DNA of 64,000 nucleotides, taken from an uncultured Thermodesulfobacteriota bacterium. Its GTDB lineage: Bacteria; Desulfobacterota; Thermodesulfobacteria; Thermodesulfobacteriales; Thermodesulfatatoraceae. Positions 4,404-10,404 of the stretch are shown here, one piece after another; within the stretch, counting starts at the first letter, position 1, and the number at the start of each line of letters is the position of its first letter. Where the stretch lies: NCBI GenBank assembly GCA_964630855.1, contig CAZVXP010000021.1, positions 29,038-93,037 of the forward strand, given 5' to 3'. The notes under the pieces were generated by a model. That model had not been told where the DNA came from. It made no database searches and worked only from the letters and a program-made list of their open reading frames with translations. The position numbers and the translations under genes were made by a program.

Positions 4404-6410
4404 ATGCGTTTACCTCGCCGCTGGCCTTTGGAATTGCGGATTATCTTTCCCTTTGGCTTTTTCTTGGGGATGGCCTTTTTTATCACCAATTATTTGACCC
4501 TTTCAGAGCTTAATACCTATCGGGAAGTTTTACTCAAAGAGGAACTTCAACTCGGTCGAGAAAATGTGCACTATTTTGAAGCTATTGCTCAGTATAATAT
4601 GCATTTAGCAGGTACTTTAGTCAAAAACCCTCGTTTTTTAGAATCTTTGATCTCTAATAAGGAACCAGAGGCTTTTCTTAATCGTCAGGCAATTCTTTTA
4701 AGTCGAGAAGCTCCGTTCCCTTATTTCGTATCTTTTAGGCAGTTAGAAAACTCGTCCGAGGCTTTTTGGCAACTTGAAAGACAAGGAGATGACTTATTTC
4801 TCTCTGGAGCAGCTCCCGTTATTTCTGGGGAGAAGTTGTTGGGTTTTTTGGTAGTTTCTTGCCGTCTAAAAGATGTTATCCATAGATTAGAACATATTGC
4901 ACATTTTCAAGCGGGTCTTCTCCTTCTAGATTCTGATAAAAGGCTTAAAATTCTCAAAGAAGTTCCGTTTCCCGTCGAAGAGAAGCTTCGGAAAAATCTT
5001 CAATATTTTTTACGTCAAAATCAAGCATTGAAAATAGGCCATCAGGTTGTTTTACTTTTCCCCTTACGCGATGCCAAAGGTGAAGTGATAGGTTTTTTTG
5101 TAAGGAGTACATTTTCTCCTTCTTTTTATTTTTCTCCTTATAATCTCCTCAAAAACAACATTTTTCCTACAGCGCTTCTTTTTGGTTTAGCTTTAATAGT
5201 CGCCATATTTTTTACGCGTCAATATCTTTGCGAACCACTGCGCAAATTTAATGATCAATTAAAAGAAATTTCTCGGGTTATAGGAAAGCGTTTGCGTCAA
5301 CCTGTAGAAGAATCTGTTCTAAAGGTAAGTGGTGATGATGAATTAGCTAATTTAGCTCGAACCATTAATGAACTCGTACGTGAACTTGACGAGCTAGCTT
5401 CATTTCGACAGGCTATTGAAACAGATGAAACTCCTCAGGAAATCTATAGTAGATTAGCTCGAGTAATTAAAAAGAAATTTGATTTTTCAAATTTTGTCAT
5501 TTTTGAAGTTTCTAATAGTCAAAATCGTATAGAACCTGTAATTGTTGAGCCATCTTGCCTTTTAGAAGAATGTTGTTATCAAGAAATAGAAGGCCGTCCG
5601 GCTCTTTGTCGAGTACTTCGGAGGGCCATTAAAGCTTCTTCTCTTCATTTTACAGAAACATGTGAATACTTTCGTGACCCTGATCTTAATTATTTATGTT
5701 TACCTCTTTATACTGGCGGTCATGTTATAGGTATTATTCATTTTCTTCTTCCTATAACTTTCCGTTTGGAAGAAAAATATCGTACAATTCTTAACCGAAT
5801 AGAGGCATATCTTCAGGAGGCAGCTCCTGTGCTGGAAGCTAAACGTTTTGCTCAAAGTTTGAGAGAAATTTCATTGCGAGACACTCTTACTGGTCTTTAT
5901 AATAGACGTATTTTGGATGATTTGGTTCCACAAATTGCAGCTGGTGTTGTTCGTAGAGATAGTATTATGGGCGTCTTGATGATAGATATCGATCATTTTA
6001 AGATAATTAATGATACATATGGTCATTCTTTTGGAGATCGTATTCTTAAATCTGTTGCTAGCATGGTGCAAGATGAGCTAAGATCTAGTGATTTAGCTAT
6101 CCGTTTTGGTGGAGAAGAGTTTCTTTGTCTTCTAGTCGATGTTGAAGAAGGTATAAGCTTTGCTATAGCTGAAAGAATTCGAGAGAAAATAGAAACAAAT
6201 TCTTTTGTCTTTGAAGGTCAGTTAGCAGCGGTAACAGTCTCTATTGGTGTAGCAGAATTTCCCCTTGACGACCGCAATCTTTGGAATGTCATCAGTTTTG
6301 CAGATCTAGCCCTTTACAGGGCTAAGCGGCAAGGTCGTAACCAATGCGTTCGTTTCGATCGGACGTTTTTGTTGGAAGAGAAGCCTAGAGTTTTAAATAG
6401 AAGACCTTGA
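4404..6410 (+). CDS. membrane sensor diguanylate cyclase (2 TM + periplasmic domain, HAMP, GAF-like, GGDEF)
   Basis: The C-terminal GGDEF domain has DIDHFKIINDTYGHSFGD, I-site RSSD, an active-site GGEEF (RFGGEEFLCLL) and ADLALYRAKRQGRN. The N-terminal half has two TM helices flanking about 230 aa. Confidence 0.9.
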   Translation: MRLPRRWPLELRIIFPFGFFLGMAFFITNYLTLSELNTYREVLLKEELQLGRENVHYFEAIAQYNMHLAGTLVKNPRFLESLISNKEPEAFLNRQAILLSREAPFPYFVSFRQLENSSEAFWQLERQGDDLFLSGAAPVISGEKLLGFLVVSCRLKDVIHRLEHIAHFQAGLLLLDSDKRLKILKEVPFPVEEKLRKNLQYFLRQNQALKIGHQVVLLFPLRDAKGEVIGFFVRSTFSPSFYFSPYNLLKNNIFPTALLFGLALIVAIFFTRQYLCEPLRKFNDQLKEISRVIGKRLRQPVEESVLKVSGDDELANLARTINELVRELDELASFRQAIETDETPQEIYSRLARVIKKKFDFSNFVIFEVSNSQNRIEPVIVEPSCLLEECCYQEIEGRPALCRVLRRAIKASSLHFTETCEYFRDPDLNYLCLPLYTGGHVIGIIHFLLPITFRLEEKYRTILNRIEAYLQEAAPVLEAKRFAQSLREISLRDTLTGLYNRRILDDLVPQIAAGVVRRDSIMGVLMIDIDHFKIINDTYGHSFGDRILKSVASMVQDELRSSDLAIRFGGEEFLCLLVDVEEGISFAIAERIREKIETNSFVFEGQLAAVTVSIGVAEFPLDDRNLWNVISFADLALYRAKRQGRNQCVRFDRTFLLEEKPRVLNRRP

Positions 6411-7803
6411 GAAAGAAACCTTTTTCGTCTTTTCCACACCCGAGAAGCCCGCGTAAAAAATTGATTTGCCAGTTTTCTTTCTTGCGATGGATCTGTAACA
6501 AAAAACCGATATCTACGAAATCTTCTTCATCTGTATGATCGTGTCGGTAAAGACCCCAAAACCATCGCGAGCGAGAAAAACCCCGTGGATCCTGGATGTA
6601 TTCGTACAGTCTTAGTAAGGGGGCATAGTTGCGATCAATTCCTTCAGAATGGAAGGGGATCAAGGCCGGAAAAAAGAAACACTCGAAGCCATCTGCTCGT
6701 CTGATCTTTTCTCCCAGAGGCCAGACCCGATGAGCCTCATAAGTGAGTTTTCCATTTTCGTCCCAGACCTTTTCAAATTTGGTGAGAAGATAAAATCGTC
6801 GTACTTCACGCCGGAAAAGACGTCCGTTGTGTTTGACTTCTTCGAGCTGATATTTGTAAAGCGGCCATAAAAAGAAATGAGAATAAGTATTTTTGCGTCT
6901 TTCATATCCTATGAGAGGCCAAAGTTTTCGTTCTCGGTGAGGGGTTTTCTGACTTTCGGCGTATCGAAAAAAGGGCCAAGGCAAATCAAGGGCTAAGGTT
7001 TCCTCTCTAAAGTTCCGGTAATAACGAAAAAAAGGCCACAGAAAGGTCCTGTGTTCGTGAACCGGACTGCGTTCGTTTATCCAGAAGGGGAAAAACATGT
7101 CCCGCGTAGTGGGGTTGGTGGCCAGATTGAATTCTTCGTGCCAGAAAAAGGGCCAAAGAAAAAAGCGTCGGTCAAAGACTCCTTTTTTGACCTTGTGTCC
7201 ATAGATAGGCCAGAATTTGCGTTCATAAAAAGTAGGGCCATCTGTGCGGTTGTAGATAGGCCAGAGCCAGGTACTCGAATGGTTTCCTTCCCAATATGAG
7301 GTCACTCGAAGAGGCCAGAGGGTGAAGCGGGTTTCTTCTTTTCCGTTCCAGTCAAGGAGGCGGCCAAAAAATGGGAAGATTCCCCAATATTTTTCTCCCT
7401 CTTCTGAACGCCCCCAAAACACTAATATAAAACTATGATGATCTTTTCTGGTTTCTTGTTGTGAGTTCTGCCCTAAAAAAGGGACCAAACGCGAGCGGCT
7501 GTACTCACCACATTCCTGATAGTGTCCCAATGGACTCAAATAATAGACATCCCGACATCCCTGGGGACGCTCGATAGTGGATAAAAAGGGTCTGATGGAA
7601 GATCCCGATTCCTCAGGACTTTCATAGCGATAAAAGAAAGGGCCCAAAAATTCCAGCTCGCGAACCCGATGGTCCGTAGAAGTTTGATAGAAAAACAAGG
7701 GCCAAAAATTGAGTCTGGTGCGGAAGCCTTCTTCTGCTTCACAAATCGAAAGAGAAAAAAGAAAGAGAATTGCTACTAAAATAACAATCCGTCCCAGTCC
7801 CAT
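6385..7803 (-). CDS. secreted repeat protein with about 18 (F/L)WP(L/F/I)-type repeats, function unknown
   Basis: The ORF is open to 7836 (TTG). ATG 7803 gives a classical signal peptide, MGLGRIVILVAILFLFSLSICEA. The body has at least 10 exact WP cores (FWPLFFY, LWPLRV, LWPIYN, FWPIYG, FLWPFFW, FLWPFFRY, PWPFFRY, LWPLIGY, LWPLYKY, VWPLGE) plus degenerate copies. It is the last gene of the mla operon. Confidence 0.7.
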   Translation of the reverse strand: MGLGRIVILVAILFLFSLSICEAEEGFRTRLNFWPLFFYQTSTDHRVRELEFLGPFFYRYESPEESGSSIRPFLSTIERPQGCRDVYYLSPLGHYQECGEYSRSRLVPFLGQNSQQETRKDHHSFILVFWGRSEEGEKYWGIFPFFGRLLDWNGKEETRFTLWPLRVTSYWEGNHSSTWLWPIYNRTDGPTFYERKFWPIYGHKVKKGVFDRRFFLWPFFWHEEFNLATNPTTRDMFFPFWINERSPVHEHRTFLWPFFRYYRNFREETLALDLPWPFFRYAESQKTPHRERKLWPLIGYERRKNTYSHFFLWPLYKYQLEEVKHNGRLFRREVRRFYLLTKFEKVWDENGKLTYEAHRVWPLGEKIRRADGFECFFFPALIPFHSEGIDRNYAPLLRLYEYIQDPRGFSRSRWFWGLYRHDHTDEEDFVDIGFLLQIHRKKENWQINFLRGLLGCGKDEKGFFLKVFYLKL

Positions 7804-7813
7804 AATCCATTTT

Positions 7814-8872
7814 CTATTGAAGGACCATCGTGCCAATGGTTCCCAGAATAGTTACAGGCATTTGTTCTTGGACCCCAGAGGCCGCTTGATTCACACTCTG
7901 GAGGGTCTTTTTGGCCTCGAAATAAAGGCTGTCATCGTTGATCAGCTTACCAAGAGTCCCTTCTCCTTTGTCAATTTTTTCTGAAATGCGACGCAAGGTA
8001 ACAATAGTTTGGTTTAGATTGTTGTATAAGCTTTCATCAGCTATGAGTTTGCCCAGCGTTCCTTCGCCTTTTTCTATTTTGGAAGCAATTTGATTTAAAG
8101 TTTCAGCAGCGCGGTCTATATGGATGATAGTTTGTTTAAGATCATAATACAATTCGTCATCATTGATTAAACGACCAAGTGTGCCTTCATTGCGATTTAA
8201 CTTTTCAGCTATTTGATTAAGATTTATGCTGAGCTTTTCTAACTGAGCATAAAGAGAATCATCCACCAATAATTTGCCCAATGTTCCTTCACCTTTTGTT
8301 AACATCTCTCCTACCTGTCGAAAAGACTTAGCTGCTTCACTAATGTTGTTTACCATAGCCTGTAAATTGTTCTTCCCTTCGGTAGTTCCAAGTAGATCTT
8401 TGAGACCAGCTGTGATGTCGCGCAGATCTTTTAAGGCCGGTCCCACTTCCGCCAGTATTTCATCAAGATCTACAGGGGATACCGTCTTGGCAATCATGCC
8501 ACCCGGGGGGAGACTTTCTGGACTTTTCCCTTGGCGAATCTCGATATATCGATCTCCAAGCACTCCTTTGGTTCTGACCATAGCTACAGCATCTTTAGCT
8601 ATTTTTACACCTTGGTAGATATTCATCTTCACACGGGCTTTGCCATCAGCTAAGGAAATATCTGCCACTCGTCCGATCTCCACGCCTGCCATTTCAACTC
8701 GTGCCCCCACTACCAGACCTGAAACGTCGTCAAATAGGGCTTCTATCGGATAGGTCTTTTTGGTGCTAATGGTTTCCTCGCCCAATTTGAGACTCAGATA
8801 AGTCAAAAAAGCCAGGGCAATAAGGACGAAAAGACCAACTTTTATTTCGATCCCGGTATCTGTCCTTTTCAT
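7814..8872 (-). CDS. mlaD: MCE-domain protein (MlaD family) with a long C-terminal helical repeat extension
   Basis: N-terminal TM anchor, then an MCE core (FDDVSGLVVGARVEMAGVEIGRV...LGDRYIEI). The C-terminal roughly 140 aa consists of EGTLG(K/R)LI repeats. Its ATG overlaps the mlaF stop (ATGA). Confidence 0.85.
   Translation of the reverse strand: MKRTDTGIEIKVGLFVLIALAFLTYLSLKLGEETISTKKTYPIEALFDDVSGLVVGARVEMAGVEIGRVADISLADGKARVKMNIYQGVKIAKDAVAMVRTKGVLGDRYIEIRQGKSPESLPPGGMIAKTVSPVDLDEILAEVGPALKDLRDITAGLKDLLGTTEGKNNLQAMVNNISEAAKSFRQVGEMLTKGEGTLGKLLVDDSLYAQLEKLSINLNQIAEKLNRNEGTLGRLINDDELYYDLKQTIIHIDRAAETLNQIASKIEKGEGTLGKLIADESLYNNLNQTIVTLRRISEKIDKGEGTLGKLINDDSLYFEAKKTLQSVNQAASGVQEQMPVTILGTIGTMVLQ
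7883..8296 (-). repeat. four tandem 34-41-aa coding repeats inside mlaD
   Basis: The repeat KGEGTLGKL(L/I)xDDSLYxxLxxxxxxLxxIxxKI has EGTLG at residues 195, 229, 269 and 304 of the protein. Confidence 0.7.
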
Positions 8873-9621
8873 GACTCGCCTCCTTCAAGGACCGGGCATT
8901 TGAGGGCCCGTAAAAACTCTCTGACAAAGGGCTTCTGAGAGAGCCGGATTTCTTCCGGAGTTCCTTCTTCCAAGATAATACCTTCGTGGAGAAAGGCGAT
9001 CTTGTCAGCAATGGCAAAGGCCACGGGGATATCATGGCTGATGACGACACAGGTAAGATGATGACTCTCTTTGGTTTCCTTTATGAGTTTGGCAATGCTC
9101 ATCTGCATGATTGGATCGAGTCCGGTAGTAGGTTCGTCAAAAAGGACTACTTCTGGCTCTAAGGCCAGAGCCCGGGCCAAGGCAGCACGTTTCTTCATTC
9201 CTCCTGAGAGCTCCGAGGGCATTTTATCTATGTCCTTCAGGAGTCCTACCTGGGCCAGTTTGGCTTCCACTCGAGCCCATATCTCTTTTTCGGAAAGGCG
9301 GGTGTGTTCACGCAGGGGAAACGCCACGTTTTCTCCCACGGTCATGGAATCGAAAAGAGCTCCTTCCTGGAAGAGCATACCGAAACGCTTTCGGATTCGA
9401 GCTAGTTCCCGTTCGCTCATGGAGGTGATATCCTGTCCATCGATGAGGATCTGGCCAGAATCGGGTTCTAAGAGACCGATAATATGCTTGAGAAGAACGC
9501 TTTTTCCCGTGCCGCTTCTTCCCATGATGAAGGTGATCTGTCCCTTGGGGATCTCCAAGTTAACCCCTCGCAGAACCTGCTGATCTCCAAAGCTTTTGTA
9601 GAGGTCAACGATTTTGATCAT
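8869..9621 (-). CDS. mlaF: ABC transporter ATP-binding protein (MlaF family)
   Basis: Walker A GRSGTGKS, signature LSGGMKKR, Walker B VVLFDEPTTGLD and an H-loop ISHD. It sits between the mlaE and mlaD genes. Confidence 0.9.
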   Translation of the reverse strand: MIKIVDLYKSFGDQQVLRGVNLEIPKGQITFIMGRSGTGKSVLLKHIIGLLEPDSGQILIDGQDITSMSERELARIRKRFGMLFQEGALFDSMTVGENVAFPLREHTRLSEKEIWARVEAKLAQVGLLKDIDKMPSELSGGMKKRAALARALALEPEVVLFDEPTTGLDPIMQMSIAKLIKETKESHHLTCVVISHDIPVAFAIADKIAFLHEGIILEEGTPEEIRLSQKPFVREFLRALKCPVLEGGES

Positions 9622-9630
9622 TGCTTTGTC

Positions 9631-10404
9631 CTATCGAAAGAGGAGCGAAGTCAAAATGTAGTCCCCAGCCAAAATACTAATAGAAGAGATTACTACTGCT
9701 TCGGTGGTGGCACGTCCTACTCCCTCAGCTCCGCCCCGAGCATGGTAACCCTTGTAACAACCAATAAGCGTTAAGAGTCCTCCAAAGACAAAGGCTTTAT
9801 AAAGACCGTTTAAAATGTCAGAAAGTTCTACTAATTCCCGCATTTTGGCCACAAAGATTCCCTGATCGATATGAAGAAGGATTACACCTACGAAATAACC
9901 ACCGGCTATTCCAATGACATCAGCCAGTACGGTGAGAAGGGGCACCATGAGCACCCCCGCCCAAAAACGAGGAACTACCAAATAATGAATAGGGTTGACC
10001 GCCATCACGGTTAAGGCGTCAATTTGTTCGGTGACACGCATAGTGCCAAGCTCTGCTGCAATGGCTGAGCCTGCGCGGGCCGTGACCATCAGCCCGGTGA
10101 GTACCGGACCAAGTTCCCGCACCAGAGAAAGAGCTACCGTGGCTCCGAGAAGAGATTCTCCTCCAAACTTGCGGAAACCGTAATAACCTTGCAAGGCCAA
10201 AACCATGCCTGAAAAAAGGCCTGTCAAAAGGACCACCAAAGTAGATTTGACACCAATAAATTCCATTTGTTTGAAAAAGAGCCGGAAGCGAAAAGGAGGA
10301 CGAAAGGTAAAAAAAAGAGTTTTTAAAAGCATGAGGGCCATGCCCCCCATTTCACCAACCAAAAGGATGCTCCCGCGCCCCAATGCCGCAATAGGATTAA
10401 TCAC
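9631..10404 (-). CDS. mlaE: ABC transporter permease (MlaE family)
   Basis: 257-aa polytopic protein with the MlaE-type conserved block LGPVLTGLMVTARAGSAIAAELGTMRVTEQIDAL. GTG start with AAGGAGG upstream. Confidence 0.9.
   Translation of the reverse strand: MINPIAALGRGSILLVGEMGGMALMLLKTLFFTFRPPFRFRLFFKQMEFIGVKSTLVVLLTGLFSGMVLALQGYYGFRKFGGESLLGATVALSLVRELGPVLTGLMVTARAGSAIAAELGTMRVTEQIDALTVMAVNPIHYLVVPRFWAGVLMVPLLTVLADVIGIAGGYFVGVILLHIDQGIFVAKMRELVELSDILNGLYKAFVFGGLLTLIGCYKGYHARGGAEGVGRATTEAVVISSISILAGDYILTSLLFR

Follow-up and report, generated by a model that had tools for sequence, protein, structure and literature searches.

X, an exported tryptophan-proline hairpin-repeat protein, as a candidate outer-membrane-side partner of needle-type MlaFED systems

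Introduction

In the canonical Mla system MlaD is short and the shuttle is soluble, and MlaA is an α-helical ring in the inner leaflet that is bound to OmpC/F. Other MCE systems are built around a needle. In PA3213/PA3214 and PqiB/PqiC, this needle passes through a ring of lipoprotein, and a hydrophobic groove receives its C-terminal peptides (PMC13631591). Here we describe a protein, given the working name X, which is encoded directly behind mlaE, mlaF and mlaD in a 64,000-nucleotide stretch of DNA (the window; contig CAZVXP010000021.1 of assembly GCA_964630855.1) from an uncultured Thermodesulfobacteriota bacterium. X is an exported repeat protein, and its genomic context across the phylum makes it a candidate for the outer-membrane-side partner of a needle-type MlaFED system.

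It is an open question how lipids pass into or out of the outer membrane at the distal end of an MCE bridge. According to a paper in the Journal of Biological Chemistry of August 2026, the known outer-membrane partners of MCE systems are porin-like barrels, MlaA-like lipoproteins and PqiC-like lipoproteins, and some systems have none. Grasekamp et al. 2023 (PMC10665443) found that 85% of MlaDs belong to the long type and that a barrel is predicted in only ~10% of MlaD sequences, and they invoked "as yet unidentified proteins". The X family is a concrete candidate partner for one large group of such systems.

Results

Gene X lies on the same strand as mlaE, mlaF and mlaD, all three of which are upstream of it (Table 1). 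Its open reading frame spans 6385..7836 (-), and the in-frame ATG at 7803 gives a protein of 472 amino acids (aa). The mlaD stop codon TAG is at 7814-7816, the spacer to the ATG of X is 10 nt (aaaatggatt), and no terminator-like site was found between the two genes. X is co-transcribed with these mla genes as one operon. These coordinates agreed with the initial annotation, which had placed the gene 10 nt past the mlaD stop at the end of an mlaEFD operon. It had also seen no MlaA, MlaB or MlaC in the operon, and for MlaA and MlaC this held more widely, as searches with PF04333 and PF05494 gave no match in the operon or in the whole assembly (MlaB was looked for in the operon only). Every MlaD of this assembly is linked to an X gene, and the assembly is without MlaA, MlaC or a PqiC-like gene. 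The helical region of the window MlaD contains four GEGTLGKL-x-D-x-SLY repeats followed by a hydrophobic tail, with no outer-membrane domain, and homologues of this MlaD bear a precomputed match to the Pfam family Helical_needle.

The linkage was followed through 201 genomes of the same phylum, and the flanks of all 79 X loci were examined. X was present in 79 of the 201 genomes (39%) and in 53 of 142 genera, in single copy except in its own assembly. Three loci are cut by contig ends and were not evaluable. At 59 of the remaining 76 the order is mlaE-F-D-X on one strand, at 8 it is X-mlaE-(F)-D on one strand, and at 9 there is no mla gene within 1.5-4.5 kb of X. Same-strand mla genes adjoin X at 67 of the 76 evaluable loci, so MCE operons are the usual setting of the family in this sample. 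Each of the nine genomes in which X is unlinked has a long MlaD at another place, in one of them (G066) 5.5 kb upstream of X. At some loci the gap between mlaD and X is wide (~600 nt); such gaps are filled by N-terminal extensions of X or, once, by a low-molecular-weight phosphatase (LMWPc) gene, and no PqiC-like gene was found in them.

These data bear on the possibility that X is an unrelated envelope protein which is merely co-transcribed with mlaEFD. The function of X is read from context only, and 12% of the loci are unlinked, both of which would fit such a bystander. It would be hard to explain, however, why the linkage to mla genes outlives changes in gene order and divergence to 25-30% sequence identity, and why X is complementary to three alternative outer-end solutions, as described below. 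We consider mere co-transcription highly improbable, and X very probably is a functional part of this needle-type Mla system.

The same 201 genomes (79 with X and 122 without) were searched for MlaA, MlaC and PqiC-like proteins. MlaA (PF04333) was found in 9 of the 79 X genomes and in 77 of the 122 others (odds ratio 0.075, Fisher 7e-14), and MlaC (PF05494) in 13 and 93 genomes, respectively (odds ratio 0.06, Fisher 4e-17). PqiC-like proteins (PF03886) were found in 15 X genomes and 62 non-X genomes, and the matches listed are either a long way from the X locus or on a different contig. When X and MlaA were counted over 85 taxonomic families, 7 families had both, 20 had X only, 41 had MlaA only and 17 had neither, with an odds ratio of 0.145 (p 1.5e-4). 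The mutually exclusive pattern of X and MlaA/MlaC is a hint that X does a corresponding job on the side of the outer membrane.

X, MlaA and MlaC were all absent from 29 genomes, and in 27 of these MlaD has an open frame of at least 460 aa. We examined 21 long MlaDs, all from genomes of this group (loci L101, L103, L104, L106-L113, L115, L117-L121, L123, L124, L126 and L127). They are 477-581 aa long and have a conserved C-terminal β-rich domain of ~170 aa with the consensus ...HLKA-x-A-x-Y-x-F-x-KYF-x-x-TAG-x-DDF ... F-x-G-x-G-x-x-F-x-DDDLKYLL, for which there was no Pfam match. As judged from its sequence, this domain is probably the C-terminal barrel described for long MlaDs of the Veillonella type (PMC10665443). 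The MlaDs of MlaA/MlaC genomes are short (146-159 aa). Those linked to X are mostly ~310-430 aa by estimated length, are without the C-terminal β domain and end in the tail EQ-x-P-[IV]-[TS]-[VI]-[LM]-G-T-(hydrophobic)6-8-COOH, which was seen phylum-wide, bar two loci broken by runs of N. The phylum thus has three largely exclusive architectures: a short MlaD with MlaC and MlaA, a tailed needle MlaD with X, and a needle MlaD fused to a β domain. The assembly of the window has the second architecture only.

The X family has no name in the databases that were searched. Profile searches of X against Pfam (E up to 0.1), NCBIfam and PDB sequences gave no match, and neither did those of 43 relatives against Pfam (E up to 1), NCBIfam and PDB sequences. 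All source names met for the relatives are "hypothetical protein", and the family was not found in literature searches. The initial annotation had not recognised the repeat family, in line with these results, and no well-characterised unrelated function came to light. A word-indexed search with X returned 540 homologues. In an exhaustive hidden Markov model search, 2631 cluster representatives (defined at 50% identity) were found at E <= 1e-3 and 975 at E <= 1e-30. Nearly all members are 440-520 aa long and align over their whole length. Sources with a label include Thermodesulfobacteria, Desulfobacteria, Desulfobacca, "Deltaproteobacteria", and metagenome-assembled genomes (MAGs) of Nitrospinae, Tectomicrobia and Planctomycetota.

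X is built of repeats. W-P occurs at residues 34, 163, 181, 198, 217, 256, 276, 295, 313 and 361. These 10 copies compare with 1.26 expected and with a maximum of 6 in 5000 shuffles, and seven more units have xP turns (GP, RP, SP, VP, FP, FP and IP). There are 18 Pro-Pro pairs spaced 17-21 residues apart, against 7.9 expected, and 18 was attained in 6 of 5000 shuffles; the hydrophobicity autocorrelation has maxima at ~16-21, 35-41 and 54-57 residues. When the 17 units were aligned on the turn proline, they followed approximately φ-x-φ-(L/F)-W-P-(L/F/I)-(F/Y)-x-Y, where φ is hydrophobic, and then a polar stretch. The initial annotation was right in counting at least 10 exact WP cores and in seeing degenerate copies besides. 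Its unit length of 20-25 aa has to be replaced by ~19 aa (17-21), and its view of ~450 aa made almost entirely of repeats applies to the array at residues ~27-385, whereas residues 386-472 form a module that is less regular but well conserved.

Across the 43 homologues, which are 28-80% identical to X, the prolines and tryptophans of the turns do not vary. The stretch FPALIPFHSEGIDRN (residues 378-392) is one of the three best-conserved stretches of X, and the family consensus of the C-terminal module is FPAL-x-PF-x-DEG-x-ERNYGPLLRLYEY. The window protein has the traits of the family: a length of ~450-500 aa, a signal peptide, ~19 hairpin units, the invariant turn Pro/Trp and the ERNYGPLLRLYEY-type C-terminal motif. 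Mature X is rich in aromatic residues (F+Y+W 21.7%) and arginine (10.3%), with a pI of 9.3.

The X profile also matched four giant proteins in 6-12 separate stretches each, namely P0163 (1767 aa), P0252 (1402 aa), P0223 (1080 aa) and P0192 (1018 aa), the last of which comes from a MAG labelled Planctomycetota. Since several stretches of one protein match the profile, the hairpin array can apparently be multiplied, and the sequences suggest that the repeat architecture is open-ended.

The structure of X was predicted with AlphaFold2 from the 43-sequence alignment, with a second run on residues 136-338 alone. The model of the whole protein has a mean predicted local distance difference test score (pLDDT) of 93.1 and a predicted template modelling score (pTM) of 0.76, and that of the segment has a pLDDT of 93.1 and a pTM of 0.73. 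The pTM of the whole model is fairly high, which would suggest that the protein is compact and has a defined shape. The signal peptide is modelled as an isolated helix, and the linker behind it has low confidence. The rest consists of ~46 short strands joined by turns of 2-6 residues, 43 of 45 strands being 4-8 and typically 5-6 residues long, and apart from the signal peptide the helices are limited to residues 387-397 and two short helical turns further on. The hydrophobicity of the strands, averaged over the alignment, does not alternate; it climbs toward every W-P turn and drops at the opposite charged turn, which points to a sheet with one aromatic and one charged edge. In the model, X is predicted to be one long antiparallel hairpin meander with the W-P edge aromatic and the opposite edge charged.

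In a Foldseek comparison with the PDB, no match of the whole model had a query-normalised TM-score (TMq) above 0.22, and no match of segment 136-338 reached E <= 1e-3. The best TMq of the segment, 0.36, was to an engineered OspA whose single-layer sheet is extended. The list for X was headed by WD40 proteins (target-normalised TM-score, TMt, <= 0.17), the teneurin YD shell, OspA and the CPAP TCP10 domain, with CPAP TCP10 giving the best TMt (0.46 at a root-mean-square deviation (rmsd) of 9.6 Å). As far as the model allows, the matches of any weight are antiparallel meanders; parallel solenoids, propellers and membrane barrels are not among them. A solenoid, propeller or barrel had been proposed in the initial annotation; the predicted antiparallel hairpin meander is unlike the solved examples of all three.

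Two known repeat folds were tried and rejected. For a β-propeller (WD40, PQQ or YWTD), the propellers in the Foldseek results had a TMt of only 0.06-0.17 and there was no propeller match in Pfam. For a YD/Rhs repeat protein, there was no Pfam or NCBIfam match and the teneurin shell had a TMq of 0.15-0.20. The traits of a barrel assembled by the β-barrel assembly machinery (BAM) were likewise rejected, as the strands fall short of the ~9 or more residues expected of such barrels and the hydrophobicity is graded rather than alternating. As to the C-terminal β-signal of such barrels, which closes with an aromatic residue, X ends in ...FYLKL, and many relatives run on with polar tails past the last strand.

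The predicted structure also speaks to a porin-type partner, that is, an integral outer-membrane β-barrel comparable to chloroplast TGD4 or to the Veillonella MlaD barrel. Predicted strands of 5-6 residues are too short for a bilayer, and their hydrophobicity lies along one edge with no alternation within strands. X is all-β and aromatic-rich and alternates with barrel-bearing MlaDs, as such a barrel might, and in its close clade the C-terminus is ...F; this Phe, however, is not conserved, and many members extend as polar tails past KLFY-x-P. Some members have a lipobox, and the meaningful Foldseek matches include no porin or barrel. We regard an integral barrel as highly improbable.

The N-terminus of X, MGLGRIVILVAILFLFSLSICEA followed by EEG, is of the signal peptidase I (SPase-I) type, and from its sequence cleavage after CEA is probable. 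The Cys of the signal peptide is not kept in homologues with 76-80% identity, which have plain AxA sites. The signal peptide of the initial annotation was thereby upheld, with SPase-I type features in X and AxA sites in its closest homologues. Among 251 relatives, ~155 have an SPase-I type N-terminus and ~59 a lipobox (e.g., LVSGC-A or LASGC-A), in none of which is Asp found at +2; the window X has no lipobox. Judged by these signal types, the family is exported and part of it, about a quarter, would be lipid-anchored as lipoproteins.

The signal types leave some room for a role of X within the same Mla system but off the outer membrane, nearer to that of MlaC, as a periplasmic lipid-binding carrier or as a sheath or chaperone of the needle. 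The majority of members lack a lipid anchor and have a signal peptide that is cleaved, the anticorrelation with MlaC is as strong as that with MlaA, and the long strip of aromatic residues could be a binding site for acyl chains. However, a shuttle would be redundant where a needle MlaD already spans the periplasm (PMC10665443), and with 450 aa X far exceeds the known carriers. The quarter of the members that are membrane-tethered lipoproteins does not fit a carrier either, nor does the alternation of X with the C-terminal β domain of MlaD, which is outer-membrane-localised in Veillonella (PMC10665443). A carrier or sheath is unlikely on this evidence, and a place for X at the outer end of the needle remains the reading that we prefer.

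Table 1. Features of the mlaEFD-X region, in window positions
Feature	Position	Strand	Basis or remark
Gene X, exported W-P hairpin-repeat protein, 472 aa	6385..7803	-	Open reading frame and translation; stop codon included
Signal peptide of X, residues 1-23	7735..7803	-	Basic n-region, 15-residue hydrophobic core, small residues at -1 and -3
Array of ~19 β-hairpin units, ~19 aa each, residues ~27-385 of X	6649..7725	-	17 units with a Pro turn, 10 of them W-P
C-terminal module, residues 386-472 of X: short helices in the conserved motif, then ~8 more strands	6388..6648	-	DSSP of the model
mlaD, 352 aa: single MCE domain, then long helical region	7814..8872	-	PF02470, E 7e-21
MlaD C-terminal hydrophobic tail (QEQMPVTILGTIGTMVLQ)	7817..7870	-	Tail motif kept in X-linked MlaDs
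mlaF, ATP-binding cassette (ABC) ATPase (ABC_tran)	8869..9621	-	PF00005, E 2e-37
mlaE, permease	9631..10404	-	PF02405, E 1e-86

On its 3' side, X meets a convergent gene for a dCache-HAMP-GAF-GGDEF diguanylate cyclase (4404-6410, +), and the last 26 nt of X are shared with it. The G+C content of the cyclase gene is 0.36-0.38, well under the 0.47-0.56 of the more distant flanks. A convergent GGDEF gene was likewise found just downstream of X in a MAG labelled Nitrospinae (L005).

A 12.4-kb contig of the assembly (L036; G000 contig C19, 1-12397) carries another mlaE-F-D-X operon, with X at 5647-7059 (+). Its identity to the window copy is 50% for X, 61% for MlaD, 83% for MlaF and 82% for MlaE. 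A radical-SAM methylthiotransferase gene precedes the second operon too and is 62% identical to that of the window. Since the other X-positive genomes are single-copy (one with a split gene), the second operon may belong to a co-binned relative rather than represent a paralogue; the contamination of the assembly is 2%.

Several observations were made at individual loci of the phylum. The LMWPc gene between mlaD and X, at 6023-6475 (-) of L047, was called by eye from a CxxxxxR-type motif, and in Thermodesulfatator indicus a Pfam LMWPc gene lies directly upstream of mlaE (L001, 4845-5243 (-)); the association with X operons may be recurrent or due to chance. MlaF was undetected between MlaE and MlaD at seven X-linked loci (L040, L041, L051, L057, L058, L062 and L085), for which the ATPase gene may be elsewhere in the genome. 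An apparent MlaD-X fusion of 855 aa (L022, G070:C204), which would have counted as Rosetta-stone evidence, was rejected as an artefact of a run of N that spans the mlaD-X junction, and at L023 a run of N interrupts mlaD itself. In genus g48, X lies within open frames of 650-850 aa, which were put down to high-GC read-through, the true start being at the lipobox signal peptide.

Discussion

We propose that X would be an exported accessory subunit that acts at the outer-membrane end of the MlaFED bridge, as a positional analogue of PqiC/PA3214. It would lie beneath the outer membrane, where some lineages would hold it by a lipid anchor and others by the Trp/Phe-Pro rim, and would take up the tip or the C-terminal tails of the hexameric MlaD needle. 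The rim would be the lipid-facing or leaflet-inserting element, and transport would be powered by ATP hydrolysis in MlaF. That X replaces the usual outer-end parts is suggested by its complementarity with MlaA and MlaC and with the β-domain MlaDs, together with the lipobox in about one quarter of its members. The initial annotation had proposed the repeat protein as the outer-membrane or periplasmic partner of a needle MCE system, and the linkage at 67 of 76 loci and the anticorrelation with MlaA and MlaC support it. By analogy with the described systems, a site at the outer membrane in contact with MlaD is the candidate role of X, and on balance X is probably the outer-end partner of needle-type MlaFED.

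Several points weigh against this proposal. The outer-membrane site and the contact with MlaD are proposed from context, and the genomes in the counts are not phylogenetically independent. X is unlinked at 9 of the 76 loci (12%), which include the whole of a sister family as sampled (6 genomes, same order). About 60% of the relatives, the window X included, are not lipoproteins, and the aromatic edge may be no more than the core of the protein itself.

If the proposal is true, X would explain how part of the large group of long barrel-less MlaDs, which are given no outer-membrane partner in the literature, reach the outer membrane. The structure of the family is also predicted with confidence and has no solved analogue, and cultivable hosts exist, e.g., Thermodesulfatator indicus DSM 15286. 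We see about an even chance that X constitutes a new outer-end class for MCE bridges, in the form of a single chain of ~46 strands that makes a hairpin ribbon and has no solved fold relative.

The antiparallel meanders that were the best Foldseek matches, namely the CPAP TCP10/G-box domain, the central sheet of Borrelia OspA and the YD shell of teneurin/Rhs proteins, share with X successive antiparallel hairpins of short strands. The likeness is distant (TMq <= 0.22 for the whole protein and 0.36 for the segment, rmsd 8-35 Å), with no sequence relation, and these proteins, unlike X, are without the W-P turn motif and have no link to lipid transport.

Among the lipid-transport systems, the MlaA (VacJ)/MlaC pathway and X are both tied to an MlaFED ABC transporter, but X and its 43 relatives have no match to PF04333 or PF05494. 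The C-terminal barrel of the long MlaD of Veillonella parvula (PMC10665443) is an outer-end solution for a needle MlaD in genomes without MlaA or MlaC, and in this phylum it alternates with X. The barrel is fused to MlaD, ~170 aa long and bilayer-spanning, whereas X is a separate protein of 450 aa with strands of 5-6 residues, and BLAST found no similarity between X and the C-terminal β domain of MlaD.

The PqiC-like systems, i.e., E. coli PqiC, P. aeruginosa PA3214 in PA3211-PA3214 and the Brucella Mpc lipoprotein (PMC12436622), have an operon logic in common with X: an MlaE-like permease, an MlaF-like ATPase and a single-MCE needle protein are followed by the gene of an exported partner. In both, the MCE protein carries a hydrophobic C-terminal peptide, and in the PqiC-like systems this peptide is known to dock on the lipoprotein (PMC13631591; PMC12436622). 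In contrast, neither X nor its 43 relatives match PF03886, X has ~450 aa of all-β structure where the PqiC-like domain is α/β and ~190 aa long (~160 aa in the PF03886 profile), and only about one quarter of the X family are lipoproteins. X is probably a large monomer, unlike the octameric PqiC-like ring. Trans-envelope MCE systems are a known theme, to which X would add a new partner class and a new fold.

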